Shown here piece after piece: positions 1,330 through 62,047 of a DNA stretch of 64,000 bases. A program made the position numbers and the translations under genes. The first letter of the stretch is position 1; every line of letters begins with the position of its first letter. The notes beneath the pieces were generated by a model, which was given only the letters and a program-made list of their open reading frames with translations, was not told the DNA's origin and ran no database searches. This DNA is from Escherichia phage vB_EcoM-pEB20. The stretch lies in the sequence record OP114733. One strand, 5' to 3'.

Positions 1330-1359
1330 GTTTACAACGTATTTGGTATGTGATACTAT
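1330..1359 (+). promoter_or_regulatory. T4-type early promoter (GTTTAC -35, TACTAT -10)
   Basis: GTTTAC then about 18 bp then TACTAT, 30 bp upstream of the ORF at 1390. Confidence 0.45.
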
Positions 1360-1389
1360 AGACTTATCAACTACAGAGGAGTAAACAAA

Positions 1390-1659
1390 ATGACTAAAGC
1401 ACGTTTCTTACGAGATACTTTAAAAGTTCTAGAAGCTGAAGCAGTTAAGTTAGTAGAAAAATATGGTGCAAAAGTTAATGGTAATGCCTTCAACAAAGTA
1501 TGGATGAAAGTTGATTCTGAAGCTCGAGCTAAAGGTTATTGGGCCACTGATAAACTTGCATCATTCAAAAACAAAGATGGTTCTCCGGCATATGTCCAAG
1601 AAGGTATGCCTAATTGGCAAAATATTTTGAAAACTTACATCAAAATTGCACAGAAATAA
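1390..1659 (+). CDS. hypothetical protein (early cassette between genes 24 and 23)
   Basis: 89 aa ORF with GAGGAG SD; opposite strand to flanking late genes; occupies the position of segD in T4. Confidence 0.55.
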   Translation: MTKARFLRDTLKVLEAEAVKLVEKYGAKVNGNAFNKVWMKVDSEARAKGYWATDKLASFKNKDGSPAYVQEGMPNWQNILKTYIKIAQK

Positions 1660-33783: not shown

Positions 33784-33813
33784 GTTTACATAAGGATGAT
33801 GGTGTGTTACTAT
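33784..33813 (+). promoter_or_regulatory. T4-type early promoter
   Basis: GTTTACA then spacer then gtgTTACTAT upstream of 33850. Confidence 0.4.
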
Positions 33814-33849
33814 CATCCTATCAAATAAACAAACCAAACGGAAAAACAA

Positions 33850-34161
33850 ATGAAAACTTATCAAGAGTTTATCGCTGAAGCTACTAAAGCCGATAAAAAT
33901 TTTATTATTAACACCACCGGTCCGTTAGATGATGAATACGCTAATGCTATTATTAAGTCAATTTCTAATCAAGGCGTTGAAGTAACAAATTTCGAATATA
34001 AGAAAAATGATACTTATATGGTAATTAGTATCAAAAAAGGTTCAAAGGCTAAAATTAAATCTGCATTTGGTGTTATGCGAGTTGACCAAATTGATAACCA
34101 TGATTTTTCACAAACAGGGGTCAAACGCCAGAATACTATTTCATCTAAAGGCATAAAATAA
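33850..34161 (+). CDS. internal protein with capsid-targeting sequence
   Basis: N-terminus MKTYQEFIAE matches the T4 internal-protein CTS. Confidence 0.7.
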   Translation: MKTYQEFIAEATKADKNFIINTTGPLDDEYANAIIKSISNQGVEVTNFEYKKNDTYMVISIKKGSKAKIKSAFGVMRVDQIDNHDFSQTGVKRQNTISSKGIK

Positions 34162-34190
34162 TTTACAACACGATAGGACTATGTTATAGT
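34161..34190 (+). promoter_or_regulatory. early promoter in stem-loop cassette (PeSL-like)
   Basis: ATTTACA -35; 9-bp inverted repeat ataggacta/tagtcctat around the -10. Confidence 0.4.
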
Positions 34191-34222
34191 AGTCCTATCA
34201 AAACAACAAAATGGAACCTAAA

Positions 34223-34486
34223 ATGAAAACTTTCAACGAATTCATCTCAGAATCGTCTGGTATGAAAATTAACAAAGCGGTCAATCAGGTTATTGCTGAT
34301 ATTCTTAATTTGTATAACATTGACTTAACTCCGCATATCACGCTTGGTAACAAACGAAACTTTTTCGTATTTGACACATCCGAACTTGATGAAAATCAGT
34401 TCAATAACATTCAACGTTTTGCGAATGATAAAGGTCTTCGACACGAGCCTGGTGGCTATAAAAAATACGCAATATATTTGAAATAA
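34223..34486 (+). CDS. internal-protein-like (CTS variant)
   Basis: N-terminus MKTFNEFISE. Confidence 0.55.
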   Translation: MKTFNEFISESSGMKINKAVNQVIADILNLYNIDLTPHITLGNKRNFFVFDTSELDENQFNNIQRFANDKGLRHEPGGYKKYAIYLK

Positions 34487-34555
34487 AGGTATACAAGCCT
34501 ATAGGGATATGTTATAGTAGTCCTATCAAAACAAATGAGTAAATGGAGAAATAAA

Positions 34556-34741
34556 ATGAAACGCGCTGAACTGATTCGTAATGTTGCTGTAGTAATTGCT
34601 TCAATGGCTTTTAGCTTTTCAATGTTTGTAGGATTCATTTGTGGACTACTGACAACAACTGAAAACTCTATCTCATTGGTAGTAGCATTTCTAATCGGCT
34701 TAATCGCTATCGTTATGGATAAAATTGCAAAAGGTGAGTAA
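34556..34741 (+). CDS. small membrane protein
   Basis: about 61 aa with two hydrophobic helices; in-frame ATG also at 34535. Confidence 0.5.
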   Translation: MKRAELIRNVAVVIASMAFSFSMFVGFICGLLTTTENSISLVVAFLIGLIAIVMDKIAKGE

Positions 34742-35105: not shown

Positions 35106-35392
35106 TTCTTTATGCTAAAGTGTCATCTATTGAGAACGGATACGAAAGCGATCAACGTGCAGCTAAAGCACTAGTCGATGACTACGGTATTCTGACTAAC
35201 TTTGAGGTTGAAAAGGTTTACATCGACCGTTCGTCTTCACAGGTCAAATTACTATGGGAAGACCGTAAATTTAATACAGTGAACTTTGATTTCTTTATTG
35301 AAACTGAATCAGGTCCAATGGAATATAATATTTTCAAGAATCCTTTGAAATTACGTTGCATTGAATATAATTACATTAATATGGTACGGTGA
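35102..35392 (+). CDS. hypothetical protein
   Basis: 96 aa ORF, ATGA overlap with upstream. Confidence 0.5.
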   Translation: MILYAKVSSIENGYESDQRAAKALVDDYGILTNFEVEKVYIDRSSSQVKLLWEDRKFNTVNFDFFIETESGPMEYNIFKNPLKLRCIEYNYINMVR

Positions 35393-35396
35393 GTAA

Positions 35397-35912
35397 ATGA
35401 ATATTTGTTTAGGCAGTACAATTCCTAAGGGTTACGTAATTGATGTCACCACTTCGGAAAATGATGGTGACAACTATAAAACTAAAACGTTGTTTGGTGT
35501 AGAAGAGCATGAGCTCCAACAGTTTAAATATCTCTTGAAGAAATTTAAGAGTCGTCATTCTAGCACTAAAGCTGAACATTACTGTGGTAATACACCATTC
35601 AGTGATTGCTCGCTTTTAATCTATGAATACTTGGTTGAAGGACTGTTCTCAGACCAGCTTTATCCAGAATTCATTAAAAAGGTCTTTGATATTGAAGTCG
35701 ACCTCGGTAATAAATCTGAAGAAGATGAATCACGTGTATTTGACCTGTTCCGTGAGAATGGATATTTGGTATCAGAAGGTCTCATTGATATTCTCGGCCA
35801 TGCTTCTGAATATTATGATTATGATTTCTTGCGTGTAGTTGAATGTGTTGAATTTGCTTATATTGAAGAAGAAATCGTTTTGCCGACTGTTAAAATGATT
35901 GATTTGCTTTAA
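35397..35912 (+). CDS. hypothetical acidic protein
   Basis: 171 aa ORF. Confidence 0.5.
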   Translation: MNICLGSTIPKGYVIDVTTSENDGDNYKTKTLFGVEEHELQQFKYLLKKFKSRHSSTKAEHYCGNTPFSDCSLLIYEYLVEGLFSDQLYPEFIKKVFDIEVDLGNKSEEDESRVFDLFRENGYLVSEGLIDILGHASEYYDYDFLRVVECVEFAYIEEEIVLPTVKMIDLL

Positions 35913-35991
35913 GAATTATGTGTTATTATTAATTCATACCCTCTATTACCAAAGGTGCTCTAAAGTGCCTTTCATAATAGAAAGTTATTTA

Positions 35992-36065
35992 GGCCCTGTA
36001 GCTCAACGGTTAGCAGCAGTCCCCTCATAAGGGAAAGGTTACCAGTTCGAATCTGGTCTGGGTCA
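35992..36065 (+). tRNA. tRNA with anticodon CAU (Ile2/Met type)
   Basis: cloverleaf folded by hand; anticodon loop CTCATAA; T-arm ACCAG-TTCGAAT-CTGGT; CCA not encoded. Confidence 0.7.
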
Positions 36066-36071
36066 TATATT

Positions 36072-36148
<77 letters not shown>

Positions 36149-36166
36149 ACTTTAAGTGAGGAAAAT

Positions 36167-36511
36167 ATGAAAGGCAATATTTATCTGGTAGTTCATGATT
36201 TAACGTTTTATTTTAACGAACATGATACAGTTATTTCAGGCCGATTGATTAATTTGTTATACCAACACGCAGATTACATCTATGTTCAAAATGAATTCGG
36301 CCATTGGAAGTTCATTAAAAACCGTTCCAGGTTAACTAGTTTTGAATACTTTGACCGTAAAGACCTTTTAAACGAAATTCCATTGCAACATCGGTTCCAG
36401 AAACGCGAATCATTATATTATTGCCGTCATATACCAAACGCCGAATGTGTTAATGAAGCGATTAATCTATGGCGTCGGCGTCGAGAGCAAATTGATGATA
36501 TGCCAAAATAA
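36167..36511 (+). CDS. hypothetical protein
   Basis: ATG MKGNIYL after GAGGAAAA; the longer track ORF would overlap tRNA-Arg. Confidence 0.5.
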   Translation: MKGNIYLVVHDLTFYFNEHDTVISGRLINLLYQHADYIYVQNEFGHWKFIKNRSRLTSFEYFDRKDLLNEIPLQHRFQKRESLYYCRHIPNAECVNEAINLWRRRREQIDDMPK

Positions 36512-36822
36512 GAAGCCGGGTCGCTACCGGCAAGTCGTCGGACTGATGTTCCCTGGGTAAGGACTAGCCTTAATAAATCTTTATGTTTTGTTAATGCTCC
36601 CTTACATCACAGCAGAAACGGCGCACAGAATTATCGATTCGAGGAAATATCTTTGCCGTAAGCCGAGTAGCGTTTTTGACGGAACGTTCGGATATGGTCG
36701 AGATATGGCCTTTTAAAAATATTAAGTAGCGTCAACTACTTAATAACCAGGTTCAAATCCCGGCGTTTCGTACAAACACTTGCCTTAGCAGGTGGAACCC
36801 CGACAAGGTTGCCGCAAGGCTT

Positions 36823-36853
36823 AGCCCCTTCCGAAAGGTTGGGGCTTTTTTTT
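36823..36853 (+). terminator. rho-independent terminator
   Basis: agcccc-ttccgaaaggtt-ggggct followed by TTTTTTTT. Confidence 0.7.
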
Positions 36854-36897
36854 GCATAATAATAAATAGATAAGTTAATTAACTTAGGAAAAGTAAC

Positions 36898-37367: not shown

Positions 37368-37396
37368 TGCCCCTTCCTTATGGTTGGGGCCTTTTG
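37368..37396 (+). terminator. rho-independent terminator
   Basis: gcccc-ttccttatggtt-ggggc then CTTTTGG; same hairpin family as 36823 and 52604. Confidence 0.6.
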
Positions 37397-37428
37397 GTAT
37401 CTAGGGCATAAAAATATTTCATAAAGTT

Positions 37429-37458
37429 GTTTACTTCTTCCCTAGATGTGTTACTATA
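37429..37458 (+). promoter_or_regulatory. T4-type early promoter
   Basis: ataaagttGTTTAC then spacer then gtgTTACTAT; same architecture as 1330. Confidence 0.45.
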
Positions 37459-37485
37459 GACCTATCAAAACATGAGGAGAATATT

Positions 37486-37791
37486 ATGAGTCTTTACACT
37501 GAACTGAATAAAAAATCTGAAGAATCTGCTGAAACTATTTTTAAAAACGTGCAAAAGCGTATTTTAGAAAAGATGTATAACACCGCAGCTAAAGGTGAAA
37601 AATCTTGCCGGTTCCCGATGAGGTGTTCTTCCGATTTATGCGCAAATACTATTGAATGGCTGGAAAGTGAAGGTCTTACGGTAGAGAAAAACCCGGCGAC
37701 TTCTATTGACAGCGAATCATATATTAGTATTTCTTGGGATAAACCTCGTATGAATGAAGGACACTACAAGTTGTTAAGTTGGAAAAATTAA
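37486..37791 (+). CDS. hypothetical protein
   Basis: 101 aa ORF after SD GAGGAG. Confidence 0.5.
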   Translation: MSLYTELNKKSEESAETIFKNVQKRILEKMYNTAAKGEKSCRFPMRCSSDLCANTIEWLESEGLTVEKNPATSIDSESYISISWDKPRMNEGHYKLLSWKN

Positions 37792-37859
37792 AAATAATGA
37801 TGTACAAGCACCAAGGATGGTGATACTATAGACTTATCAACTACAGAGGAGTAAACAAA

Positions 37860-38024
37860 ATGACTACTTTAATTATTTGGTTTGATGAAAATGAAGAAAC
37901 ATACTGTGTGAATATTGGTGAAAGTCCAATGCCTGAATTTGAATCCTCGGATAAAAACTCTGTTGTATCTTGGGCTGAAGGTTATAAAGCAGCTAAAGGT
38001 GACGTTGAAATAATTTACATCTAA
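37860..38024 (+). CDS. small hypothetical protein (54 aa)
   Basis: manually found; leader and first two codons identical to the ORF at 1390. Confidence 0.4.
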   Translation: MTTLIIWFDENEETYCVNIGESPMPEFESSDKNSVVSWAEGYKAAKGDVEIIYI

Positions 38025-38070
38025 GTAAGTTTATGTTATAGTAATCACAACAAATCAAGAGGAAAACAAA

Positions 38071-38298
38071 ATGGCTAAAGTTAGTATTGATGTCGTTGAT
38101 TATGAATACACTGAAGAAGTTATTCGCAACCGTCACCCTGAAGTTCGTATCGATTCAGTCCAAGATTCCAAGTTCTGGACAACCGAGCTTAATCTGAGTG
38201 GTCCTTATGAAGCTGTTAAGAAGTTCATGGTTGAAGAATACTGCGAAGGCATGCACCCCGAAGACGCCAAGTTTTATGTCAATTTGATTAAAAAATAA
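38071..38298 (+). CDS. hypothetical protein
   Basis: 75 aa ORF. Confidence 0.5.
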   Translation: MAKVSIDVVDYEYTEEVIRNRHPEVRIDSVQDSKFWTTELNLSGPYEAVKKFMVEEYCEGMHPEDAKFYVNLIKK

Positions 38299-38335
38299 TT
38301 TACAAACTCTTGAGAGCAGAGTATAATGCTCTCAT
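38298..38335 (+). promoter_or_regulatory. early promoter with -10 inside a stem-loop
   Basis: ATTTACA then spacer then TATAAT; inverted repeat gagagca/tgctctc flanks the -10. Confidence 0.45.
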
Positions 38336-38368
38336 TGGATAATAAACCACCAATTGAAAGGTAATAAT

Positions 38369-38962
38369 ATGAACACACTGAAGAAACTTGTTGAATTCAT
38401 CCGCACTAAACTGGGTACTGCTATGGCTAAAAATCTGACTGTCGAAGAACAGTATAACGCAGCTGCAGATAAGTTGATTACCCAAATCAAAGAACTAAAA
38501 ACAGCTTCTGTTAAATCTATTAATGAAGAAAAACGTATTCGCGAACTTGTTAATGAAAAGAACAAGCAAGCCGCTTCTAAGGAACGTGAAATTCGTAAGC
38601 TCTTGGCTGAAGGACAAGATGTTACCATGCATGCTAAGCTTGGTCTTCTGTATCGTCGAACTGCCGAACAACTTAATACAAAAGCTGACGGATATGCCGC
38701 TATGCGAATTGAAATTGCTCGTAAGGTGGTTGAACTTGACGATGCTCGTCAGAACCTGGCAATCAAACTCGAATACATTCGTGAAACTCGAGCAGCCAAT
38801 GCCCTTGGTATCTCTACGGCCGATGATGTAATTGAAATCGCTGCACTGACTAAGGTTGATATCGAAGACACTCTGACTCGTGTTGAAACGTTCAATGGCA
38901 CTCCAGTCGGCGTCGAAACCACTTCTGCTGATGTACAAGAATATATTAACTCTTTGAAATAA
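38369..38962 (+). CDS. coiled-coil protein (possible PspA/IM30-like fold)
   Basis: about 197 aa of heptad-like helical sequence. Confidence 0.5.
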
Positions 38963-39978: not shown

Positions 39979-40316
39979 CCGTATGGCCTTCTCTTGGTGA
40001 GAACATTCTAATTTTTATTATGAGTATTGGCATGGGATTTGCCTTTGGATTAGTTGGATTTCTTATTGACGGCGTTGTGTTAGGATTTATAGGGAACACT
40101 GGTGGATTCACAGACCAATGGCAGGACTTACGATATACTCAAGCCTTTGCATCCATTGCATCATTTTGTACTATAGTCTATTTTTACTACGATTTTATAA
40201 ACCATAACAAGAAAAATAAAAAGGTTTACGCTTCTCAAATGATTAGTTATAATGAACTCCTAGCTAGACGTGAAAATGAAACAATCGAAAACTTTATTAA
40301 GGAATGTAGAAAATGA
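39957..40316 (+). CDS. membrane protein
   Basis: 119 aa, two transmembrane helices; C-terminal ENFIKECRK. Confidence 0.55.
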   Translation: MQKPQLLTVWPSLGENILIFIMSIGMGFAFGLVGFLIDGVVLGFIGNTGGFTDQWQDLRYTQAFASIASFCTIVYFYYDFINHNKKNKKVYASQMISYNELLARRENETIENFIKECRK

Positions 40317-41111: not shown

Positions 41112-41140
41112 GTTTACAACAAGATAGGGCTATGTTATAG
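41112..41140 (+). promoter_or_regulatory. early promoter in stem-loop cassette (PeSL-like)
   Basis: GTTTACA; inverted repeat atagggcta/tagtcctat around the -10. Confidence 0.45.
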
Positions 41141-41169
41141 TAGTCCTATCAAAACAAATGGAGTCCACA

Positions 41170-41409
41170 ATGATTTATTACGAAAGTATCGGAACCAAAG
41201 TGGTTGGTAAAACCATTACTCGTGAAAAGTTTGCAAAGATATTCGATATGCGTTATAAAAAATCTGAACACAAAGGCATCCGATTCGAAGATGCGCACTG
41301 TACAATTTGCCCTTATAATGAAGACATAAACGGTACAATCGTTCCATTGGTAGAGGCTTCACATGATGACCTCTGGGATGAATATGATATCGCATGTCGT
41401 GAAATTTAA
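41170..41409 (+). CDS. hypothetical protein
   Basis: ATG MIYYESIG after AAATGGAG. Confidence 0.5.
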   Translation: MIYYESIGTKVVGKTITREKFAKIFDMRYKKSEHKGIRFEDAHCTICPYNEDINGTIVPLVEASHDDLWDEYDIACREI

Positions 41410-42406: not shown

Positions 42407-42436
42407 GTTTACATCTTGATAGGACTATGTTATAGT
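42407..42436 (+). promoter_or_regulatory. early promoter in stem-loop cassette (PeSL-like)
   Basis: GTTTACA; ataggacta/tagtcctat inverted repeat. Confidence 0.45.
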
Positions 42437-42464
42437 AGTCCTATTAAAACATGAGGAGAATATT

Positions 42465-42770
42465 ATGAAATTAGGCGAAACCAACCGAATTGGTCTTTTA
42501 ACAATATTTGTATCACTTTTTTACGCAGCTCTTTCTGTTGCAGTATTACAAAAGGCTTACAGTATGGATGGTGTTCCTGGTTTTGTATTCTTATCGCCGT
42601 TTTTGCTATTCGTTGGAGCATTGTTATTATATGCCACGACTAGTTTCGACCATAATGTCTGGGTCAATTATAAATGTAAATTGTCTGAAGAAGAACACGC
42701 AGAAGCTCGTAAAAAAGCTATTGAATCTACCAATCTAGAAAATTTCATTAAAGAATGTCGAGGAAAATAA
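42465..42770 (+). CDS. membrane protein
   Basis: 101 aa, two transmembrane helices; C-terminal ENFIKECRGK. Confidence 0.55.
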   Translation: MKLGETNRIGLLTIFVSLFYAALSVAVLQKAYSMDGVPGFVFLSPFLLFVGALLLYATTSFDHNVWVNYKCKLSEEEHAEARKKAIESTNLENFIKECRGK

Positions 42771-44182: not shown

Positions 44183-44630
44183 GAAAAATAAAGTGAAAGA
44201 ACTATCAGCCGGTATTATTTTCCTTACCGAAGATAAAGAATTATTCATGGGGCGTGTAACTGGTTCTCGTCCTAAAGGTTCTTTAGCTCATCGGTGGGAT
44301 ATTCCTAAAGGACGTGTCGAGCCCGGTGAATCTCCTATTGAAGCCGCTATTCGCGAATGCGAAGAAGAAACTGGGTTTACACAATATGACCCTGCCTTCC
44401 TGAAAGACCTAGGTGAACATCATTACTCAGACAATAAGAATATTCATCTGTTCCTATATACCATCCCTGTAGAGCACGAGCAATTCAGAAACAGTGTTTG
44501 TAATTCCTATCATACATTCCCAGACGGACGACAGATTCCTGAATTTGATGCATTCGCTTTAATTAAACCTTCTCAATGGGAATATGTAATGGGCAAATCA
44601 TTATATAGGGTGCTCACTACCCTCCTATAA
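44172..44630 (+). CDS. nudE: Nudix hydrolase NudE (e.1)
   Basis: Nudix box GRVEPGESPIEAAIRECEEETGF; adjacent to lysozyme e. Confidence 0.85.
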   Translation: MMSKKNKVKELSAGIIFLTEDKELFMGRVTGSRPKGSLAHRWDIPKGRVEPGESPIEAAIRECEEETGFTQYDPAFLKDLGEHHYSDNKNIHLFLYTIPVEHEQFRNSVCNSYHTFPDGRQIPEFDAFALIKPSQWEYVMGKSLYRVLTTLL

Positions 44631-44638
44631 GTAATAAA

Positions 44639-44662
44639 TACCTCCTATAAACATGGGAGGTA
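44639..44662 (+). promoter_or_regulatory. stem-loop sequestering the lysozyme ribosome-binding site
   Basis: tacctcc-tataaacatg-ggaggta pairs the SD GGAGG 5 nt before the e ATG. Confidence 0.6.
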
Positions 44663-44664
44663 TT

Positions 44665-45153
44665 ATGAATATATTTGAAATGCTTCGTAATGACGAAGGT
44701 CTTAGACTGACTTTATACAAAGACACTGAAGGCTTTTGGACGATTGGCATCGGCCATTTAGTAACAAAGAACCCGTCTTTAGCCGTAGCTAAAGCTGAAC
44801 TTGACAGAATGATCGGTCGTAAATGCAACGGTACAATTACCCTTGATGAGGCTGAAAAGCTATTTAATGAAGACGTTGATAAAGCCGTCCGCGGAATCTT
44901 GGGTAATGCTAAACTTAAACCGGTATATGATTCTTTAGATGCGGTTCGTCGATGCGCATTGGTTAATATGGTCTTCCAAATGGGTGTATCAGGCGTCGCC
45001 GGTTTTACTAATTCTCTTCGTATGCTTCAACAGAAACGTTGGGATGAAGCGGCAGTAAATCTAGCCCAATCTAAATGGTATCGTCAGACACCTAATCGTG
45101 CGAAACGCGTAATCTCAACATTTAAAACAGGAACTTGGAAAGCGTATATATGA
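44665..45153 (+). CDS. e: lysozyme (endolysin) e
   Basis: [32 protein letters not shown] matches T4 lysozyme; 162 aa by coordinates. Confidence 0.95.
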
Positions 45154-45432: not shown

Positions 45433-45462
45433 GTTTACTTCCTCCAAGGACTTTGATACTAT
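45433..45462 (+). promoter_or_regulatory. early promoter with flanking inverted repeat
   Basis: GTTTAC; cctccaag ... cttggagg inverted repeat spans the -10 and includes the denV SD. Confidence 0.45.
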
Positions 45463-45489
45463 ACATTCATCAACTACTTGGAGGAAATT

Positions 45490-45903
45490 ATGACCCGTAT
45501 CAATTTAACACTTGTTTCTGAACTGTCCGACCAACATCTTATGGCTGAGTATCGTGAATTACCACGCGTATTTGGTGCAGTCCGTAAACATGTTCAAAAC
45601 GGTAAACGTGTAAAGGATTTTAAAATCTCTCCAACATTTATCTTAGGCACAGGTCACGTAACATTCTTTTACGACAAACTCGAATTTTTACGTTTACGAC
45701 AAATCGAGCTAATCGCTGAATGCTTGAAACGTGGTTTCAAAATCAAGGACACGACTGTCCAGGATATTTCCGACATCCCTGCCGAATTTCGTAATAATTA
45801 TGTCCCGTCCGAAGCGTCCATTGCGATAAGTCAAGCACGCTTAGATGAAAAAATTGCTCAACGTCCGACTTGGTACAAATACTATGGTAAATCAATTTAC
45901 TAA
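45490..45903 (+). CDS. denV: endonuclease V (pyrimidine dimer DNA glycosylase) DenV
   Basis: [12 protein letters not shown]...[17 protein letters not shown] matches T4 DenV; 137 aa. Confidence 0.95.
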
Positions 45904-45910: not shown

Positions 45911-46171
45911 ATGAAAATGTATCAAGAATTTATCACTGAAGCAGATGCCAAAGGTCCTAAATTTAAAGTTAAAGCTTTCATTGGTGATGCGGAAGACTTT
46001 GGCTCATTAAAACGTAATGGGTATTCTTTCTTAGGTGGCAATGGTAAAGAAATCAACACCTATGCAAAACGTAGTGAAATTGCTTATGTTGTAGCAAGCC
46101 CTAAAGTAGATGTTGACGATATTGGATACGATTTTAACAACTTCGGAATTATTTCTGGCGGTAAAGATTAA
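45911..46171 (+). CDS. internal protein (IPII-like) with capsid-targeting sequence
   Basis: N-terminus MKMYQEFITE; about 86 aa. Confidence 0.65.
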   Translation: MKMYQEFITEADAKGPKFKVKAFIGDAEDFGSLKRNGYSFLGGNGKEINTYAKRSEIAYVVASPKVDVDDIGYDFNNFGIISGGKD

Positions 46172-46174
46172 ATT

Positions 46175-46204
46175 GTTTACGCTTAAGTATTAATATGGTA
46201 TAAT
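46175..46204 (+). promoter_or_regulatory. T4-type early promoter
   Basis: GTTTAC then about 18 bp then TATAAT. Confidence 0.5.
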
Positions 46205-46235
46205 TACTCTATCAAAACAAACAAGGAAACAAAAA

Positions 46236-46550
46236 ATGAAAACGTATAAAGAATTTATTGCAGAATCCGCCAACCAACGCGTTGAAGGTGGTTATATTTG
46301 GATTGAACAAGTTGAGCCACCGAGCCGCACTTCTACAGGTAAATGGAAAATTACTGTTGACGGTCCTGGCGGTAAACGTAGGACTCTTAAAGAAATTAAC
46401 GGGTACTATGAAGAAGCTCTTTCGGATGCAGGAACTTACATGATGCAAATCATGATTAAAAACCCTGAAAACCGTTTTGCAGCTAAAGTCTTCCGCCGTA
46501 TTGGTAATAAACTTTATGATGCATACTCTAAAAACTTCCCTAAAGAATAA
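46236..46550 (+). CDS. internal protein with capsid-targeting sequence
   Basis: N-terminus MKTYKEFIAE. Confidence 0.65.
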   Translation: MKTYKEFIAESANQRVEGGYIWIEQVEPPSRTSTGKWKITVDGPGGKRRTLKEINGYYEEALSDAGTYMMQIMIKNPENRFAAKVFRRIGNKLYDAYSKNFPKE

Positions 46551-46575
46551 CATAAATTAAAACAATAGGAACAAA

Positions 46576-46905
46576 ATGAAAACATATCAGGAGTTTATCA
46601 CTGAAGTTACATTATCTGCGGAACAGAAAGCTGCTATCGAAGAAGGTAAAAATCCCAAAGTAACATATAAAGTAAATAGTAAAGGCGTTTTTGATGGCTT
46701 GGTTCAAGACCCTGAATTGAAAAAAGCTCTTTCTAAAACTAATGCGTACTTTGCTCCTAAATTTAACACAGCCGGTGTACTTATTGGATTGGATGTATTC
46801 AACTCTAAAGGTGTTCTATCTAATGCCTTTGGTTATGCCGCTAACAAAATTACCAAAGCCGCATGGGAATCCAATACCAAACAAGCTCAAAAGCCTAGAG
46901 TATAA
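46576..46905 (+). CDS. internal protein with capsid-targeting sequence
   Basis: N-terminus MKTYQEFITE. Confidence 0.65.
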   Translation: MKTYQEFITEVTLSAEQKAAIEEGKNPKVTYKVNSKGVFDGLVQDPELKKALSKTNAYFAPKFNTAGVLIGLDVFNSKGVLSNAFGYAANKITKAAWESNTKQAQKPRV

Positions 46906-48515: not shown

Positions 48516-48771
48516 AGACATCAAAGGCTACAAGCCGCATACCGATGATAAAATCGGTAAAGTGAACGCTATTAAAGATGCAGAAGTCCGTCTTGGATTG
48601 TTGTTTGATGCTCTGATTGAAGAAGCATATATCTTGAAAGAAAATGAAACAGAGCAACAAACCAAAGAAGATATGGATGCAGTGCAGGCTCTTAAGTATG
48701 CTAAGCAACATCTAAAAGAAGCCAGCATGTGGGCGTGTCGTGCAGTATTTCGACCTGAGGAAAAATACTAA
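48505..48771 (+). CDS. hypothetical protein
   Basis: ATG MSIEDIKGYK inside a longer track ORF. Confidence 0.45.
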   Translation: MSIEDIKGYKPHTDDKIGKVNAIKDAEVRLGLLFDALIEEAYILKENETEQQTKEDMDAVQALKYAKQHLKEASMWACRAVFRPEEKY

Positions 48772-48986
48772 TGGCTTCTACTATTACTGGGTTATTGGAC
48801 TTTCAAGAAAAGGTCAACAAAATTTGTAGTGAATACTTAAAGTATCTTGAAGAAGACCTTGAAGATTGTAAGGAAGAAGGCGAAGAAGACTATGCTGACC
48901 AGCGTCGACGCCAAATCGAAGAGATGAGGCATTTCGCCAATATAGTATCTAAAGAATCTTGGGCTTTAACTCCATTTTATCAATAA
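48771..48986 (+). CDS. hypothetical protein
   Basis: 71 aa ORF. Confidence 0.45.
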   Translation: MASTITGLLDFQEKVNKICSEYLKYLEEDLEDCKEEGEEDYADQRRRQIEEMRHFANIVSKESWALTPFYQ

Positions 48987-48990: not shown

Positions 48991-49020
48991 GTTTACTTCT
49001 CCTCTAGTTGTGTTACTATA
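48991..49020 (+). promoter_or_regulatory. early promoter with flanking inverted repeat
   Basis: GTTTAC; cctctagttg ... caactagagg flanks the -10 and includes the regB SD. Confidence 0.45.
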
Positions 49021-49047
49021 GACCTGTCAACTAGAGGAGAAATCAAA

Positions 49048-49506
49048 ATGACTATCAATTCAGACGTTTTTATCCGCCGTAATAAACTCCGTCGAATCTT
49101 TGAAACGGAGTTCCGCAAAATAAATGCCGGTATAAAAGATGCTGCAAAGTCTCTTGGACTACCAGGCTTTCATATCAAGTATTCTCAACATCTCTTAGAT
49201 CGTGCCATCCAGAGAGAAATAGATGAGAATTACGTTTTTGAATTATTTCATAAAGTAAAAAATCACGTTAAAGAAGTTGCAGAATTTTTGTCAATGCCGG
49301 CACGTCCAGATGTTGATGAAGATTTTGTCGAAGGTGTCGAGTATCGTCCAGGCCGTTTAGAAATAACTGACGGAAATCTTTGGTTAGGACTTACAGTTTG
49401 TCGCGAAAATCCGGCATTCAAAATGAAGACTCTTCAATGCAGAATGGCTATTATTAACAGTAAACGACTACCAGGAAAAGCTTCTAAAGCAGTGATTAAA
49501 ATCTAG
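49048..49506 (+). CDS. regB: RegB site-specific endoribonuclease
   Basis: 152 aa; MTINSDVFIRRNKLRR...KYSQHLLDRAIQREIDE...RLPGKASKAVIK matches T4 RegB. Confidence 0.92.
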   Translation: MTINSDVFIRRNKLRRIFETEFRKINAGIKDAAKSLGLPGFHIKYSQHLLDRAIQREIDENYVFELFHKVKNHVKEVAEFLSMPARPDVDEDFVEGVEYRPGRLEITDGNLWLGLTVCRENPAFKMKTLQCRMAIINSKRLPGKASKAVIKI

Positions 49507-52633: not shown

Positions 52634-52643
52634 GCATCTATCA

Positions 52644-52672
52644 GTTTACTTCTCCTCAGGTTGTGTTATAGT
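52644..52672 (+). promoter_or_regulatory. T4-type early promoter
   Basis: GTTTAC; -10 gtgTTATAGT; partial inverted repeat ctcctc ... gaggag. Confidence 0.4.
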
Positions 52673-52699
52673 AGTCCTTACTTACTAGAGGAGAACGTT

Positions 52700-52879
52700 A
52701 TGACACGTAAAGAAAAGATTTCTAAGTTAATGTTTTTGATTGAAGAGTACGCTAATGCGGTATCTGATTGGGAAAATGCCCATGGTTGCGAAGATGGAGA
52801 CATCGACATTAACAGAGCTATGAAAAAGATGGCCGAAGCCCACACCGAATTGCAAATGTATGTTAACGAGATTATGTGA
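52700..52879 (+). CDS. hypothetical protein (rI.1 position)
   Basis: ATG MTRKEKISKL after GAGGAGAA. Confidence 0.5.
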   Translation: MTRKEKISKLMFLIEEYANAVSDWENAHGCEDGDIDINRAMKKMAEAHTELQMYVNEIM

Positions 52880-52886: not shown

Positions 52887-53093
52887 ATGCTTTACGATTA
52901 TACTGGAAAATCTGAAGACGGTGTACTTGAACTTTTACCTGAAAGCGCTGAAGATGATGATATGGTGGTGATGTTTTGTAAAAATGGTCCTGGGGATAAG
53001 GGATGGATTTATCTTCGCCAAGAAAATGACCTAATTGTTTTGGACCCTAAACAAGTTGAAGAACTTTATCAACATTTAAAACATAATCGGTAG
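52887..53093 (+). CDS. hypothetical acidic protein
   Basis: ATG MLYDYTGK. Confidence 0.45.
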   Translation: MLYDYTGKSEDGVLELLPESAEDDDMVVMFCKNGPGDKGWIYLRQENDLIVLDPKQVEELYQHLKHNR

Positions 53094-53122
53094 TTTACAT
53101 GCTAATAGGACTATGATATAGT
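53093..53122 (+). promoter_or_regulatory. early promoter in stem-loop cassette (PeSL-like)
   Basis: GTTTACA; ataggacta/tagtcctat inverted repeat. Confidence 0.45.
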
Positions 53123-53150
53123 AGTCCTATCAAATCAATTGGAGAACAAA

Positions 53151-53261
53151 ATGAAACTTTTGCTTATCGCTTATGTTGTAGTACAATACAATTATCCGAT
53201 GTTTACTTATAACATGGTAAACGGCATAGTGAATCTTATTGAAACGAGTATGGTAAAATGA
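53151..53261 (+). CDS. very small hydrophobic ORF (36 aa)
   Basis: ATG after TTGGAGAA; MKLLLIAYVVVQY...; found manually. Confidence 0.3.
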   Translation: MKLLLIAYVVVQYNYPMFTYNMVNGIVNLIETSMVK

Positions 53262-55737: not shown

Positions 55738-55768
55738 GTGTACATGCTTTTAGGATATGTTATTATAG
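55738..55768 (+). promoter_or_regulatory. candidate early promoter
   Basis: GTGTAC -35 variant; -10 TATTATAG; downstream tagacctatc motif. Confidence 0.35.
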
Positions 55769-55804
55769 ACCTATCGAAACGAAATGAGTAAATTGGAGAA
55801 TAAA

Positions 55805-56785
55805 ATGTTCAACGTTCAAATCAAAAAAGGTATCTATCGTAATAACGAAATCTCTGGTTCTTATGTTGCCACAAAGACCTGGTTCCCGGCAAAGCTTAAT
55901 CCTGAATGTTCCCACTTAGGTGATGGTAAAATTTTCGTTATGATTGATGGTTCTGAACGTGGAGTATGGGTCTTCAAATCAGACATCGTAATGGAAGGAG
56001 TTGAGACGTCACCGGTTGCAGTTGTTGAAAGCACTGAAGATATGAAAACTCGTATCAACAAACGCTTTAAAGTAATGAACATGATGACGAATGGTATTAT
56101 CGATGGCAAAATTCGTTCACTCATTATTTCAGGTGCAGCCGGTATCGGTAAGACGTATTCTCTGGATAAAGCACTTAATAGTGCTAATGATAACGGTTTC
56201 ATCAAATACAAAAGCATTAATGGTAAAATCTCTGGTATTGGCCTTTACGAACAACTTTGGCTCAACCGTGATGCAGACAGCGTTCTCTTAATCGACGACG
56301 TTGATGTATTCTCAGATATGGATATCTTGAACCTTCTTAAAGCAGCATTAGATACCGGTGATAAACGCAAAGTTTGTTGGAGCACTGCGTCATCTTATCT
56401 TGATGATAAGGGTATTGATAAAGAATTTGAGTTTGAAGGTACTATCGTTTTCATTACAAACGTTGATATTGATAAAGAGTTAGAACGCGGTTCGAAACTT
56501 GCTCCGCACCTTCAAGCTTTAGTATCTCGTTCAGTGTATCTCGACCTTGGAGTACACTCTAATGAAGAGATTATGGTTCGAGTTGAAGATGTAATATTAT
56601 CTACTGACATGATGCAGAAACGTGGCTTGACTGATGCTGAAACGTACAAAGCATTGTCCTGGATGAAGGCTAACGTATCTCGTCTTCGCAATGTATCATT
56701 ACGTACGGCTCTTTATGTAGCAGATTTTATTTCAACTGATAAAGATGGTTGGGAGGAAATCTCTGAAGTAACTTTACTGAAATAA
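55805..56785 (+). CDS. AAA+/P-loop ATPase
   Basis: Walker A ISGAAGIGKT, Walker B VLLIDDVD, sensor-like FITN; about 326 aa. Confidence 0.65.
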   Translation: MFNVQIKKGIYRNNEISGSYVATKTWFPAKLNPECSHLGDGKIFVMIDGSERGVWVFKSDIVMEGVETSPVAVVESTEDMKTRINKRFKVMNMMTNGIIDGKIRSLIISGAAGIGKTYSLDKALNSANDNGFIKYKSINGKISGIGLYEQLWLNRDADSVLLIDDVDVFSDMDILNLLKAALDTGDKRKVCWSTASSYLDDKGIDKEFEFEGTIVFITNVDIDKELERGSKLAPHLQALVSRSVYLDLGVHSNEEIMVRVEDVILSTDMMQKRGLTDAETYKALSWMKANVSRLRNVSLRTALYVADFISTDKDGWEEISEVTLLK

Positions 56786-57213: not shown

Positions 57214-57245
57214 GTTTACAAGGTCTATGGTTATGTTATTATAGA
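57214..57245 (+). promoter_or_regulatory. T4-type early promoter
   Basis: GTTTACA; -10 TTATTATAG; tagacctatcaa downstream. Confidence 0.4.
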
Positions 57246-57269
57246 CCTATCAACTACTGGAGGTAAAAC

Positions 57270-57797
57270 ATGAACGCTAAAGATATTTTCAACCTGGTAA
57301 ATTATAACGACGGTAAATTTAAATCTGAAGCACAAAGCAAGTTCTTTAATGACGTTGCTTATGGTAACGAGATTACCGTGGACGGAGGTCAGATTTTCAA
57401 ATCTCGCTGGAATTGGATTGTTATCATCGATTCAGTTGGAATTGTGGAAGTCTACAAAAACACTAACAAAAAACGTACATTATTCTGGTCTCGTGAAACT
57501 AACGAGCAGTACAAAAAGGATAAAGCATCTCGTTTATCCAAAGTAACCCAGGAAGATATCGAGTTTATCAAGAAAGATATCGAGATGTACGAAAATTTAA
57601 TCGCTGAAGACCAGGCAGTACTCGATAAGTTTGATGAAATTAAAGCTTCTCGTGAAATCCCTGACTTCATGAAAGAATCAGTAAACGAACGATACGCTCT
57701 CACTTCAGAACGTATTGCAAACTATACAAAACAGAAAGCAGAACGTATTAGTACTCTTCGGAAATTTGAAGAACGTTTAAAGACGGTTCACGCATAA
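57270..57797 (+). CDS. hypothetical protein
   Basis: 175 aa after SD GGAGGT. Confidence 0.5.
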   Translation: MNAKDIFNLVNYNDGKFKSEAQSKFFNDVAYGNEITVDGGQIFKSRWNWIVIIDSVGIVEVYKNTNKKRTLFWSRETNEQYKKDKASRLSKVTQEDIEFIKKDIEMYENLIAEDQAVLDKFDEIKASREIPDFMKESVNERYALTSERIANYTKQKAERISTLRKFEERLKTVHA

Positions 57798-57859
57798 ACG
57801 CTTTACCCAAGGACGGGTTATAATGGTTCTGAGTTCCAATTCAATCTGAGGAAATAGTT

Positions 57860-58855
57860 ATGAGCATTACATCTGATGCGGTAAAACATGAAATTAACGG
57901 TTTATGTGCTTCACAGATTAAAGTGTGGTTTAAAGACCATAATGATCGCAGAGCACTTAATTATGAACAAATTGCTATCCAAGTTCATCAATTACTGGTT
58001 AGTAAATTTGATTTTCATATGCCGTCTGAAATCTATACTAATCTGCCGCGAGCACTTATTAAAGCGTGTAAAGGTTATGGAAAATCAATGGCTGATGGAA
58101 TCTTCAGCGCGCTGAATAAACTTAACGTTCTGTCGATGATTAACTCTAACAACATCCTTCGTAATCTAGGACGTACTGATTTGTTCGGTCGTGAACAGGG
58201 TAAAATGCCTTTGAAATGGATTGTTGCTCATCTTAACGAGAACCAAACACGTTTTATGGCCGTAACAGCACGCTTACAAATGGGCCTAGATCGTCAGATG
58301 AACTTTAAAACTCATCCACGTTATTCAGGTTCAACTGACTTTTATAAATGTGAGCTTCAAAAGGTTGCAGGTAAAACTGTCTTAGTAGTTCGTGTAACGT
58401 TTGAAGGACGACGTCAAGGATATTTTGACATAATCGGCTCCGGGCTTAAACATTGTGGATTTATCGACGAAGTTGATATCAAGCGAGACGGCATTGGATA
58501 CCGTATTGGATATGTTTGTACTCTTAAAGAAGAGATTTCAGGACCAGCACCAGGACTAAAAGACGTTAGATATAAAGACGAGCTCATTGAAGAAATAAAA
58601 GAAGTTGAATATGATATCAACCAAGAAGATGCTCTTAAAGACCTTATTGACGAACTAAACCAAGACTTTATTCCGGTTCAGAAATTTGAATCAAAACATG
58701 CTGAGCAAATCAAATACTTTGAAGCTTTGATTAACGAACTTAATGTAACTATTCAACAGACCGACGATGAAATCTCACGATTAGCAGGCTTAAATGGTAA
58801 AAATAAAACAGAACGAGCTAATCTTATTCAAGTAGTAAAACTTCTTAAGGAATGA
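57860..58855 (+). CDS. hypothetical protein with C-terminal coiled coil
   Basis: 331 aa. Confidence 0.55.
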   Translation: MSITSDAVKHEINGLCASQIKVWFKDHNDRRALNYEQIAIQVHQLLVSKFDFHMPSEIYTNLPRALIKACKGYGKSMADGIFSALNKLNVLSMINSNNILRNLGRTDLFGREQGKMPLKWIVAHLNENQTRFMAVTARLQMGLDRQMNFKTHPRYSGSTDFYKCELQKVAGKTVLVVRVTFEGRRQGYFDIIGSGLKHCGFIDEVDIKRDGIGYRIGYVCTLKEEISGPAPGLKDVRYKDELIEEIKEVEYDINQEDALKDLIDELNQDFIPVQKFESKHAEQIKYFEALINELNVTIQQTDDEISRLAGLNGKNKTERANLIQVVKLLKE

Positions 58856-58864
58856 TGTACAACC

Positions 58865-58894
58865 AAGGAAGGTTGGAGTATAATAAATTTTTCA
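58865..58894 (+). promoter_or_regulatory. T4-type early promoter
   Basis: ATGTACA -35 variant; ccaaggaaggttgg then TATAAT; near-duplicate of 59851. Confidence 0.45.
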
Positions 58895-58910
58895 ACATGA
58901 GGAATATAAA

Positions 58911-59846
58911 ATGGCTTCTATTACACGTAGAGAACTTATCAAAGAATTTACCTCGAACGCATATACCCCAGGACCTAATCCTATCCGTATGCCTGTAAAG
59001 ACTCCTGAAGAGATTGAGGAAATCTGTTCATATTATGGGATTAATTCTCGTAAGTTTACTCAATTTGAATGCGTTACTAACACACCCGTTAAAGAGTTCA
59101 TTAAAAATGGTGAGTTCAGCCGTTTATTAGCCAAACAGAAACTTCGTAATTTTTGTATCGGCGGTTACGGACAATATTTCGCTAAGCAGTTCCGGAATAA
59201 CCTTAACAATCTGATGGCCATTGCTTCTCGTATTCGTCCTCAAGCAATTAACATGAAACATTTGAAATATACTTACGATAAGTTGGAAATCATGGTTATC
59301 AGTGAGAATGAGTTCACTCTCACGTATAAACCTAAGAATGATAACGTTGCTCGTGTATTCCACCAAGCGTTGGAAGTGTTAGGTGATAATATTCACCAGA
59401 TTAAAGCAATTTATTCTCGTGAGCTTAATATTATCAACCCTATCAAGAATAAGGGCCATATCGCTATCCAGGCTCGTGTATCTATTGGTAAAAAGGTTCC
59501 TGCGCCATGGTGGCACAAAGACTCTGAATACTATCAAAATCTTAAAAAGGAAAATGCAACGTTCGAAGCGTCAATTACTGCAACACCAATTGGCCATGCT
59601 GAAGTTCTAGGTGCATATTCTACTGCTCCATCTATACACATTTCACCGTCGACTAAACTGGAAATCTCTAACGGTCTTCTTCCTGCCGAAGATTACCATT
59701 ATAATCAAATCAAGGCCACTGTAGACCAACTATCCGTTGAACTTGACAAAGCACAAGCTAAGCTTCGTGATGCTCAACAAGTAGTTACCAAGCTCCAGTT
59801 GCAGTACTCTAAACTTTTTAACGCAATGAATGCGTTAAAATCATAA
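58911..59846 (+). CDS. hypothetical protein with C-terminal coiled coil
   Basis: 311 aa. Confidence 0.55.
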   Translation: MASITRRELIKEFTSNAYTPGPNPIRMPVKTPEEIEEICSYYGINSRKFTQFECVTNTPVKEFIKNGEFSRLLAKQKLRNFCIGGYGQYFAKQFRNNLNNLMAIASRIRPQAINMKHLKYTYDKLEIMVISENEFTLTYKPKNDNVARVFHQALEVLGDNIHQIKAIYSRELNIINPIKNKGHIAIQARVSIGKKVPAPWWHKDSEYYQNLKKENATFEASITATPIGHAEVLGAYSTAPSIHISPSTKLEISNGLLPAEDYHYNQIKATVDQLSVELDKAQAKLRDAQQVVTKLQLQYSKLFNAMNALKS

Positions 59847-59850
59847 ATCA

Positions 59851-59880
59851 GTTTACAACCAAGGATGGTTGGAGTATAAT
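59851..59880 (+). promoter_or_regulatory. T4-type early promoter
   Basis: GTTTACA then 18 bp (accaaggatggttggag) then TATAAT. Confidence 0.55.
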
Positions 59881-59908
59881 GAATTTATCTTAACGAGAGG
59901 AAAATATT

Positions 59909-60859
59909 ATGACACGTTCACATTACATTGAATACTTTGCAGGTCTTATCGCTAACGTTCATGCCCAACGTGCTTCTGGTGCACTAGGATTTGATGTTCC
60001 ACACCGAGATGTAGTAAGTGGTATTCTTCGCGATTTTGGTACATACACAGGCCAAGAAAATCATATCTGTAAAGATACTCAGAATGCGTATTCTCATTCA
60101 TTAGGGACGCTGCTTCAATGGTTCAAACGTTCTCGTTTATTATCTTCTACTGTAGCTCGCGATAACATTAAAAACTTTATGAAACCGAGCTTTATTAAAT
60201 CTGTGACATCTAAAACTGATTTGGTTGAATTCACTATTGTTAATGATGTTAAAAAGACTCATTTGGCTGATTGGTTATCTACCATTCCTGAAACTAAATT
60301 TGCTGATAAATTTGCTTGTGAATTCAATAAACAAGTGAATATGCTTTTTAAACATTCTCGTAAATTATTCACTGGCGGTGATGGCCGTACAAATAAAGTT
60401 CATGTTAAAGATTGGGTTACTGCAGTATTCAAACCAACTGGTAATGGTAACGCATCATTATCAATTGATATCCAGGTTCCTTATTACTACTCACGTAATC
60501 TCGGTACCATGAAAGCCGAAGAAATTAATAAGCACAACAAAACTATTCGTTCGTTGTCTTATAAACTTATTACATTGTTAGAGACTATGGATGTTGTTGA
60601 AACGTTCGACGAATCCGAAGATAACGGTTCAATGTTATATAGTTCTCGTACCCGAATTAAGTTGAAGAACCCTAACGAGTATAAACTTAAGACTATTAAA
60701 GAACCTAAAGTAGAAAAGGTTGATATCATGGCTGAAGAACGTGAATATCTCAAATCTCGTCTGAAAGAAGTCGAAGCCCAGATTGCAGAACAAACTAAAT
60801 CGTTAAAAGCTCTGAATGCGAAAGCGGATGGTTTACGAAATGCCATTGAGGTGTTATAA
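59909..60859 (+). CDS. hypothetical protein with C-terminal coiled coil
   Basis: 316 aa. Confidence 0.55.
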   Translation: MTRSHYIEYFAGLIANVHAQRASGALGFDVPHRDVVSGILRDFGTYTGQENHICKDTQNAYSHSLGTLLQWFKRSRLLSSTVARDNIKNFMKPSFIKSVTSKTDLVEFTIVNDVKKTHLADWLSTIPETKFADKFACEFNKQVNMLFKHSRKLFTGGDGRTNKVHVKDWVTAVFKPTGNGNASLSIDIQVPYYYSRNLGTMKAEEINKHNKTIRSLSYKLITLLETMDVVETFDESEDNGSMLYSSRTRIKLKNPNEYKLKTIKEPKVEKVDIMAEEREYLKSRLKEVEAQIAEQTKSLKALNAKADGLRNAIEVL

Positions 60860-62045: not shown

Positions 62046-62047
62046 AT

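Follow-up and report, generated by a model that had tools for sequence, protein, structure and literature searches.

A 64,000-nt stretch of Escherichia phage vB_EcoM-pEB20 (record OP114733; this whole stretch is called the window below) contains 20 early-promoter cassettes of T4 type, each 60-90 bp long. Nineteen of them occupy the + strand from 33.7 to 60 kb, the other being at 1330. These repeated modules are probably immediate-early promoter/leader cassettes, about half of which carry hairpins that could form in read-through RNA only and would mark where a transcript originated. The window belongs to an RB69-like T4-type coliphage of the genus Mosigvirus (~97% identity to F31, JK36 and RB69), and its cassettes are the Mosigvirus addition to elements that have already been described, the promoter-early stem-loop (PeSL) cassettes and those of the internal-protein (IP) locus.

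The cassettes were found by a scan for a GTTTAC-like hexamer followed by TAnnnT, combined with a listing of all intergenic gaps. All are intergenic and immediately 5' of a start codon, with the Shine-Dalgarno sequence (SD) and the start codon at their 3' end; four other matches to the promoter pattern (33475, 45667, 60831 and 62268) were excluded because they lie inside genes. The layout is an A/T-rich tract, GTTTAC, a spacer of 17-18 nt, TGnTAnnnT, AGnCCTATCAA, a GGAG SD and ATG, and the consensus aligned on the -10 reads aAAA..gTTTACaa...(spacer)...TaTGt TATaaT AgtCcTATCAAa.caa..SD..ATG. The assignment as promoters draws on sequence evidence, the pattern GTTTAC-N17/18-TAnnnT being mostly accompanied by TGn. 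A+T content reaches 75% in the -62..-39 region (62% window-wide), upstream stop codons touch or overlap the -35, and the genes downstream either encode internal proteins or have no known function. In a direct-repeat search of the whole window, run in place of a self-dot-plot, these modules were the dominant repeats and made up the largest families (D1-D3, D5, D7 and D9), with evident paralogous copies in D1, D3 and D9; the other top families correspond to the conserved start of IP genes (D4 and D6) and to a terminator present three times (D8). All the motifs quoted in the original prediction, which had described a promoter, stem-loop and SD module recurring before small genes, are present with offsets of a few bases, including the identical leader, a 22-mer (AAAACATGAGGAGAATATTATG) at 37467 and 42446. 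The 9-bp inverted repeat that it placed at four sites is exact in three, ATAGGACTA starting at 34173, 42419 and 53105, but at 41124 the 5' arm is ATAGGGCTA, which makes a G.U pair. TAGTCCTAT begins at 34190, 34518, 41141, 42436 and 53122, and TCCTATCAAAACAA is found at 34193, 34521 and 41144. A search of 30-64 kb against Rfam returned only the two tRNAs, so that the cassettes are covered by no known RNA family.

In about 11 of the 20 cassettes the spacer is complementary to sequence 3' of the -10, and the inverted repeats follow three designs. Class A (33784, 34161, 38298, 41112, 42407, 53093 and 57214) has a 7-12 bp stem with arms at ~-27..-16 and -7..+4 and TGnTATAG in the loop, built in the window from four unrelated arm sequences. 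In class B (regB at 48991, denV at 45433 and the 52644 cassette) the 5' arm directly follows the -35 and the 3' arm is the SD. Class C (37800, 57805, 58855 and 59851) is a 4-5 bp hairpin within the spacer, with the loop AAGGA; its stems covary (CACCA/TGGTG, ACCC/GGGT, CAACC/GGTTG and AACCA/TGGTT), and a CCAAGGA motif is also present in the denV promoter spacer. The longer palindromes of the original prediction (GAGAGCA/TGCTCTC at 38298 and the stems at 45439/45477 and 48997/49028) are real and exceed the length claimed. However, it pooled what has to be kept apart, since those that it gave at 45441 and 49001 are the SD-sequestering stems of denV and regB, separate from the stems that bracket the -10. 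The cassettes are as follows, fold z-scores being against dinucleotide shuffles.

1330..1392, + strand: the sole cassette in the late-gene half, driving an 89-aa open reading frame (ORF) antisense between genes 24 and 23.
33784..33852, + strand: class A cassette driving an IP gene; AGGATGATGGT/ACTATCATCCT brackets the -10; z -3.9.
34161..34225, + strand: class A cassette; -35 ATTTAC overlapping the upstream stop codon, -10 TATAGT; stem GATAGGACTA (34172-34181) / TAGTCCTATC (34190-34199); minimum free energy (MFE) -16.6 kcal/mol, z -4.8.
34489..34558, + strand: degraded cassette, the right-hand edge of the variable IP module; -35 GTATAC; stem ATAGGGATA/TAGTCCTAT with two defects; z +0.67.
37429..37488, + strand: cassette without a significant stem; terminator upstream; same leader as the 42407 cassette; z 0.1.
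37800..37862, + strand: class C cassette with a weak -35 (ATGTAC) and the small spacer hairpin CACCA-agga-TGGTG; family D3; its 47 nt at 37820-37866 are 100% identical to 1350-1396.
38013..38073, + strand: stemless cassette; z 0.57.
38298..38371, + strand: class A cassette; TGAGAGCA/TGCTCTCA brackets TATAAT; z -2.8.
41112..41172, + strand: class A cassette; GATAGGGCTA/TAGTCCTATC with one G.U pair; z -4.05.
42407..42467, + strand: class A cassette; z -3.75.
45433..45492, + strand: class B cassette of denV; TTCCTCCAAG (45439-45448) pairs over 10 bp with the SD CTTGGAGGAA (45477-45486), with the -10 in the loop; z -5.3.
46175..46238, + strand: stemless cassette driving an IP gene; z -0.75.
48991..49050, + strand: class B cassette of regB; TTCTCCTCTAGTTG (48997-49010) pairs over 14 bp with CAACTAGAGGAGAA (49028-49041), which holds the GGAG SD; z -4.9.
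52644..52702, + strand: weak class B cassette with a terminator upstream; TTCTCCTC/GAGGAGAA, 8 bp; z -1.0.
53093..53153, + strand: class A cassette; ATAGGACTA/TAGTCCTAT; z -2.4.
55738..55807, + strand: cassette with -35 GTGTAC and a weak stem; terminator GGGACC-ttcg-GGTCCC upstream.
57214..57272, + strand: class A cassette of nrdC.8; AGGTCTAT/ATAGACCT; z -2.2.
57805..59911, + strand: three class C cassettes (57805, 58855 and 59851) preceding three consecutive genes of the nrdC cluster; loop AAGGA; family D9.

The -10 had been predicted to be embedded in an inverted repeat, which RNA folding bears out for nine cassettes (z -2.2 to -5.3), but 8-9 of the 20 have no significant stem and five (34489, 37429, 38013, 46175 and 52644) fold no better than shuffles. 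Where there is complementarity, it is in excess of chance. The cognate duplex has an energy of -12.5 kcal/mol or lower in 11 of the 20 cassettes, and the mean for each spacer against its own downstream part is -11.1 kcal/mol, compared with -8.8 +/- 0.67 for permuted partners (p ~5e-4). A stem score of at least 9 is reached by 31% of the 166 distinct cassettes gathered from the window and relatives, a fraction that falls to 2% after spacer shuffling and to 5% in chimeras.

The position of the arms determines which RNA could fold. The 5' arm of every one of the 55 distinct arm pairs listed with a stem score of 7 or more is upstream of +1, ending at or before position 0, while the -10 is within the loop or, where that arm is at -12..0, is overlapped by it; loop lengths are 6-28 nt. 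In class B, the -10 is within the loop and the 5' arm is at -30..-16. Sigma-70 promoters start transcription ~7 nt past the -10, and the cassette start site would be the A of CCTATCAA, ~7 nt after the -10. Because the 5' arm is upstream of this site, the transcript of a cassette's own promoter would be devoid of it and only read-through RNA would hold both arms. The cost of opening the stretch from the SD to the AUG was therefore computed for both RNAs.

regB (48991): 19.5 kcal/mol in read-through RNA, 3.7 kcal/mol in own-promoter RNA.
denV (45433): 11.7 kcal/mol in read-through RNA, 2.1 kcal/mol in own-promoter RNA.
52644 cassette: 9.3 kcal/mol in read-through RNA, 3.1 kcal/mol in own-promoter RNA.
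1330 cassette: 7.7 kcal/mol in read-through RNA, 1.4 kcal/mol in own-promoter RNA.

In class B, read-through raises the computed cost by 6-16 kcal/mol, and the SD is computed to be paired in long transcripts at regB, denV and the 52644 cassette. Masking of the class B SD is well supported by these computations, and it would be expected to lower translation. Two other pairings were discarded. The GTTTAC/GTAAAC pairing in the 1330 cassette is probably due to chance (its twin at 37800 has the same leader and a different -35), and the idea that the class A 5' arm keeps a UCCU in the start region off the SD, as an 'anti-anti-SD', was unconvincing, with arm shuffling raising SD opening by only 0-2.4 kcal/mol.

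In the mechanism that we propose, the A/T-rich tract would be UP-like, the -10 of the extended type and the GGAG-type SD would double as the recognition motif of the phage RNase RegB, completing a unit with the -35 GTTTAC and the conserved AGnCCTATCAA start-site region. About half of the cassettes would keep their spacer complementary to a segment 3' of the -10, with the 5' arm between -30 and 0. The transcript from the cassette's own promoter, lacking this arm, would stay unfolded, and RNA reading through from an upstream promoter would form a hairpin of -13 to -22 kcal/mol, so that the hairpin would mark where the transcript began. In class B, neither translation nor RegB cleavage of read-through RNA would take place, and expression would come solely from the gene's own early promoter, which would be the logic of T4 e, soc, 49 and I-TevI with an early instead of a late promoter. 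In class A, the hairpin, just past the upstream stop codon and away from the SD, would most likely be an attenuator or a 3'-end protection insulating neighbouring cistrons, as has been suggested, and in part tested, for the stem-loops of PeSLs. Since the cassettes are repeated and conserved and the ORFs between them are not, they may also provide homology patches for ORF swapping, for example at the IP locus.

Class B stems could alternatively serve translational coupling, a ribosome terminating upstream melting the stem and freeing the SD on read-through RNA whenever the upstream gene is translated. At denV and regB the 5' arm does begin only 8-11 nt after the upstream stop codon, with the anti-SD bases at its 5' end. 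However, the CTCC that pairs with GGAG begins at least 13 nt past the stop codon, a distance at the limit of what a terminating ribosome can reach or beyond it, and the denV SD of other phages has its partner in the -10/discriminator region, at least 30 nt from the stop codon. The known T4 cases of this architecture are, moreover, purely inhibitory (PMC3014915), and we regard coupling as improbable.

These T4 cases are the closest known relatives of class B. Genes e, soc, 49 and I-TevI have SD-sequestering hairpins with an internal late promoter (reviewed in PMC3014915), and as in class B the SD pairs upstream with an arm that the gene's own transcript lacks, so that only read-through RNA is masked. 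The internal promoter, however, is late (TATAAATA) in the T4 cases and early (GTTTAC/TAnnnT) in class B, where the anti-SD arm occupies the promoter spacer and the expected outcome is expression 'only from own early promoter' rather than 'only late'. Because of its early internal promoter, class B is a variant of this hairpin family that stands outside the late class. The classical late-promoter-in-hairpin arrangement is also found in the window, at genes e (44630-44667, CCTCC...GGAGG) and 49 (62944-62982, CCCTTA...TAAGGG), with a late-promoter-like TAAATA at the 5' arm. A published account holds that secondary structure shields GGAG from RegB, without mentioning a hairpin, and the review of Uzan and Miller covers late-promoter cases only. 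The searchable literature, which does not include key older papers, gave no earlier description of early-promoter anti-SD stems, and no priority is claimed.

Comparison across phages revealed that the pairing outlives the sequences that form it. Upstream of regB, 16 IMG/VR contigs were compared; the distal part of the anti-SD stem is CTAGTTG/CAACTAG in Mosigvirus, the stem is CTTGACTG/CAGTTAAG with two G.U pairs in Tequatrovirus, and it is CTTTATG/CATAAAG and TGTAAGT/ACTTACA in two further groups, a fifth group having a class A stem (GGGCCAT/ATGGCCC) instead. In ~35 distinct phages the denV SD is almost always paired upstream of +1, either with the spacer, in at least five different sequences, or with the -10/discriminator region. 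T4 itself carries both the regB and the denV stems. The nrdC.8 promoter is of class A in Mosigvirus and of class B in T4-like phages and a third group. Alignment and folding of ten regB upstream regions (MAFFT and RNAalifold) gave no consensus structure because indels shift the arms out of register, and pairing at regB and denV was counted by a GGAG/CTCC-anchored count in place of consensus folding. Compensatory changes are seen in class A too. Orthologues of the 53093 cassette go from GATAGG/CCTATC through GGTAGG/CCTATC to GGTAGG/CCTACC, an A-U, G.U, G-C series, and the same series is found downstream of gene 57B. Compensatory changes have preserved the pairing in different genera, T4 among them.

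That the similarity between cassettes reflects mere duplication of promoter DNA, with accidental complementarity, might be thought in view of the clear paralogous copies in D1, D3 and D9. Nevertheless, cognate arms pair better than swapped ones, shuffled and chimeric controls score far lower, and the compensatory changes include G.U intermediates, results that already contradict accident and leave it the least credible of the explanations considered.

The 231 distinct cassettes comprise 36 unrelated clusters of stem sequence, and their internal non-Watson-Crick pairs are more often G.U than A.C (21 vs 6 per distinct arm pair; 10 vs 3 per cluster, p = 0.046). This excess is more in keeping with RNA folding of the sense strand than with a symmetric DNA structure or an operator for a protein. 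Operators through which a dimeric protein, of phage or host, turns early promoters off would be in accord with a repeat bracketing the -10, and T4 early-promoter shut-off is still unexplained (PMC2988021). It is difficult, however, to reconcile one such protein with at least 36 unrelated arm sequences, loops varying from 6 to 28 nt, G.U pairs tolerated on one strand only and the absence of the repeat from many strong early promoters, which makes operators highly implausible.

The stem-loops could also be intrinsic terminators, each cassette then being a terminator-promoter pair and each gene a separate transcription unit. One phi1 stem-loop cut downstream lacZ expression as much as rrnB T1 (PMC2839356), and the hairpins directly follow upstream stop codons. 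Yet the stems, 7-12 bp long, are A/T-rich, those of classes A and B have no T-run after them, and a terminator scan returned none of the cassette hairpins. Canonical terminators with a T-run lie separately, 5' of three cassettes (37369, 52606 and 55693) whose own stems are weak or absent, hinting, on very few cases, that a hairpin and a terminator stand in for one another. Termination by the stems is consequently unlikely. One terminator sequence is repeated, with two of its three copies directly 5' of early-promoter cassettes.

37369..37403, + strand: terminator GCCCCTTCC-N4-GGTTGGGGC followed by a T-run, family D8; copies at 36824-36858 and 52606-52640.

The modules had been likened to PeSLs, and as far as sequence anatomy and genomic context go this resemblance is supported. 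PeSLs were defined in RB49 and phi1, with a stem-loop mostly in the stretch separating the -35 from the -10 or over the -10 (Arbiol et al. 2010, PMC2839356). Like the cassettes, they consist of an A/T-rich tract with the upstream stop codon, an early promoter, a stem-loop, an SD and an ATG (PMC2839356), occur in many copies beside small accessory ORFs of hyperplastic regions, tolerate G-T pairs in their stems and are found at indels between close relatives. They differ in having near-consensus TTGACA/TATAAT promoters, whereas those of the window are of T4 type (GTTTAC / TGnTAnnnT), and polyG-loop-polyC stems in place of A/T-rich stems of many sequences; terminator activity and mini-circles are known for them, while the cassettes are known from sequence alone. 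The stems pairing with the SD, a subset here, are not discussed in the PeSL papers. PeSLs were later extended to PST/T4 and nt-1/KVP40 (Comeau et al. 2014, PMC4122927), and the PST/T4 form, with the promoter TTTACW-N17-TAYWAT and AGNA-loop-TCNT stems (PMC4122927), matches the cassettes in both respects (here AGGA...TCCT), although the PST legend puts the stems 'just upstream' of the promoter and here the arms bracket the -10 (PMC4122927). In T-even phages, IP-locus elements (Repoila et al. 1994, as cited in PMC2839356) flank variable IP genes in the same way as the elements of the interval 34161-34560. RB69 has no mention in either PeSL paper (PMC2839356, PMC4122927), and Mosigvirus is not treated there.

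The cassette at 1330 belongs to a unit of its own (1330-1690, + strand), which comprises the cassette, the 89-aa ORF at 1390-1659 (phrog_6003, unknown function) and a bidirectional terminator at ~1668-1689, and which is antisense between late genes 24 (5-1288, - strand) and 23 (1712-3280, - strand). It is moron-like; as with lambdoid morons, a small accessory gene with its own promoter and terminator sits between unrelated genes. Unlike the cassettes, lambdoid morons have no conserved repeated cassette flanking them and no proposed movement through one.

The setting of most cassettes is the early half of the window. Its first 30 kb hold late structural genes on the - strand, and early genes run on the + strand from ~30.2 kb, with the gene order of RB69: 2, 3, 1, 57A, 57B, IP locus, tRNA.4-.2 and two tRNAs; then e.8...e.2, nudE, e, denV, a second IP locus, vs.x and regB; then vs, tk, rI, nrdC.x, pin, 49 and nrdD. 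More than 100 records, all RB69-like Mosigvirus including mar005P1, match most of the 33-45 kb and 39-63.9 kb queries at 95-97% (megablast), with no identical record among the matches. The interval 34161-34560 falls within the first IP locus, where two genes encode internal head proteins.

33850..34161, + strand: internal head protein gene, 103 aa (phrog_2667, 1.9e-38), with the capsid-targeting start MKTYQEFIAE; other genes take its place in F31, SSE1, ST2 and others.
34223..34486, + strand: internal head protein gene, 87 aa (phrog_7673, 2.2e-48), with a cassette on either side; variable among relatives.

A capsid-targeting start, MK(T/S/M)(Y/F)xEFxxE, is present in seven genes of the window (starts at 33850, 34223, 36898, 45150, 45911, 46236 and 46576).

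The homologous 40-45 kb of nine Mosigvirus genomes were compared with the window through chained BLAST matches, which gave 31 distinct indels or replacements. Five alleles of the IP locus occur among the ten genomes; their left boundary is just past the conserved IP-gene start, their right one at the following cassette's -35. In five relatives (F31, O157tp3, SSE1, 308Ecol101PP and G53) an extra 66-aa ORF, with a second, degraded cassette, is inserted precisely at the -35 of that at 42407, and ORF 48771-48986 is swapped up to the regB cassette's -35. Elsewhere, events have no connection with cassettes (35390-35902, 50851-51262, 61833-62079, 62506-62944 and a homing-endonuclease insertion at 63454). 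Deletions 45941-46607 (O157tp3) and 46210-46556 (308Ecol101PP) end in repeated IP-gene leader or capsid-targeting sequence, the end point of the former being a 30-nt capsid-targeting coding repeat. The comparison with breakpoints in relatives, which had been suggested as a check, is passed only weakly. Breakpoints do fall at cassettes; 13 of 49 edges are in cassettes, which make up 6.6% of the region (~4x the uniform expectation, p = 1e-5). They do not, however, do so more than at other gene junctions, with 13 of 42 edges (31%) against 25% of junctions with a cassette (p = 0.25).

These data bear on the possibility that the cassettes are mainly mobile recombination modules, as strict PeSLs, with exchange between copies excising or inserting ORFs, possibly via mini-circles, and the stem serving this exchange, for example as a cruciform or hairpin to which a nuclease or recombinase is drawn. 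The cassette-bounded alleles of the IP locus, the arrival of the extra ORF at 42407 with its own cassette, the identity of 47 nt in cassettes 36 kb apart and the excess of breakpoints over a uniform distribution are all in its favour, and mini-circles have been demonstrated in phi1 and RB49 (PMC2839356). Conversely, the excess vanishes under the fair gene-junction null, the two cassettes around the extra ORF have in common only a few scattered short matches, other indels end at capsid-targeting repeats or overlapping start and stop codons, and the bias of G.U over A.C together with SD-specific pairing indicates RNA, not duplex DNA. Mobility as the main function is thus doubtful, if conceivable; as recombination linkers at particular loci the cassettes are plausible, and this sample gives no demonstration of it.

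Two other sites of change were recorded. A GTTTAC-N18-TATAAT site within gene e.3 (40224-40253) is the right edge of a 250-bp deletion in 348Ecol098PP, and 62944 is a recurrent insertion point of a 60-aa ORF in five relatives. The 866-bp insertion of 348Ecol098PP between 49 and nrdD (its stretch 35518-36339; 63454-63509 in the window) encodes a putative endonuclease and looks like a homing-endonuclease gain unrelated to cassettes.

Several points weigh against the view that the modules are promoter/leader cassettes with hairpins reporting transcript origin. The hairpin is not obligatory, given the cassettes that have no significant stem. Start sites are deduced from the position of the -10, and the G.U bias is modest after allowing for the relatedness of cassettes. 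In class A, SD opening differs by just 0-3 kcal/mol between the two RNAs and there is no T-run, for which reasons the effect of these stems is a guess, resting on the single phi1 reporter experiment, made with a G/C-rich stem. As for the homology patches, breakpoints are not enriched over gene junctions, and some indels end in the capsid-targeting coding repeat or have no visible repeat.

Some features outside the cassettes deserve mention. Just past tRNA-Met (35992-36065) and tRNA-Arg (36072-36148), a 345-nt stretch without a credible ORF (36512-36856, + strand) folds far beyond shuffles (MFE -119 kcal/mol, z -4.6), has no Rfam match and ends with one copy of the repeated terminator; it may be the counterpart of C and D, the stable RNAs that belong to the tRNA region of T4. 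At 53295-53301, 65-70 bp that are present in eight of nine relatives are missing, leaving a 112-nt gap at their tk.1 gene, probably a strain-specific pseudogene. Finally, the record of phage ST2 (GenBank OM982647) is labelled Guernseyvirinae; Kagunavirus, yet a 40-kb stretch of it is collinear with the window and ~96% identical, and this label is probably wrong.

The observation is sound but mostly ordinary, similar elements having been described as PeSLs and IP-locus cassettes. For annotation, it means that the most conspicuous repeats of RB69-type genomes are regulatory cassettes, for which a consensus and positions are given here, rather than mobile elements or CRISPR-like arrays. Mosigvirus is added to the PeSL picture and the stems are split into functionally different classes, while the popular gene-shuffling role does not stand out against a gene-junction null and is a matter for the population scale. 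The SD-pairing class offers a simple testable rule for the brief production of genes such as regB, and bears on the unexplained end of T4 early gene expression. More tentatively, the anti-SD stems in immediate-early promoters (regB, denV and the T4-like nrdC.8) might constitute an undescribed conserved filter on transcript origin, in T4 as well and in at least four phage groups. If so, these genes would be translated, and exposed to RegB, only on RNA from their own early promoter, shut-off of early promoters would end their synthesis despite continuing read-through and middle transcription, and class A would be a non-SD version of the same spacer-encoded device.

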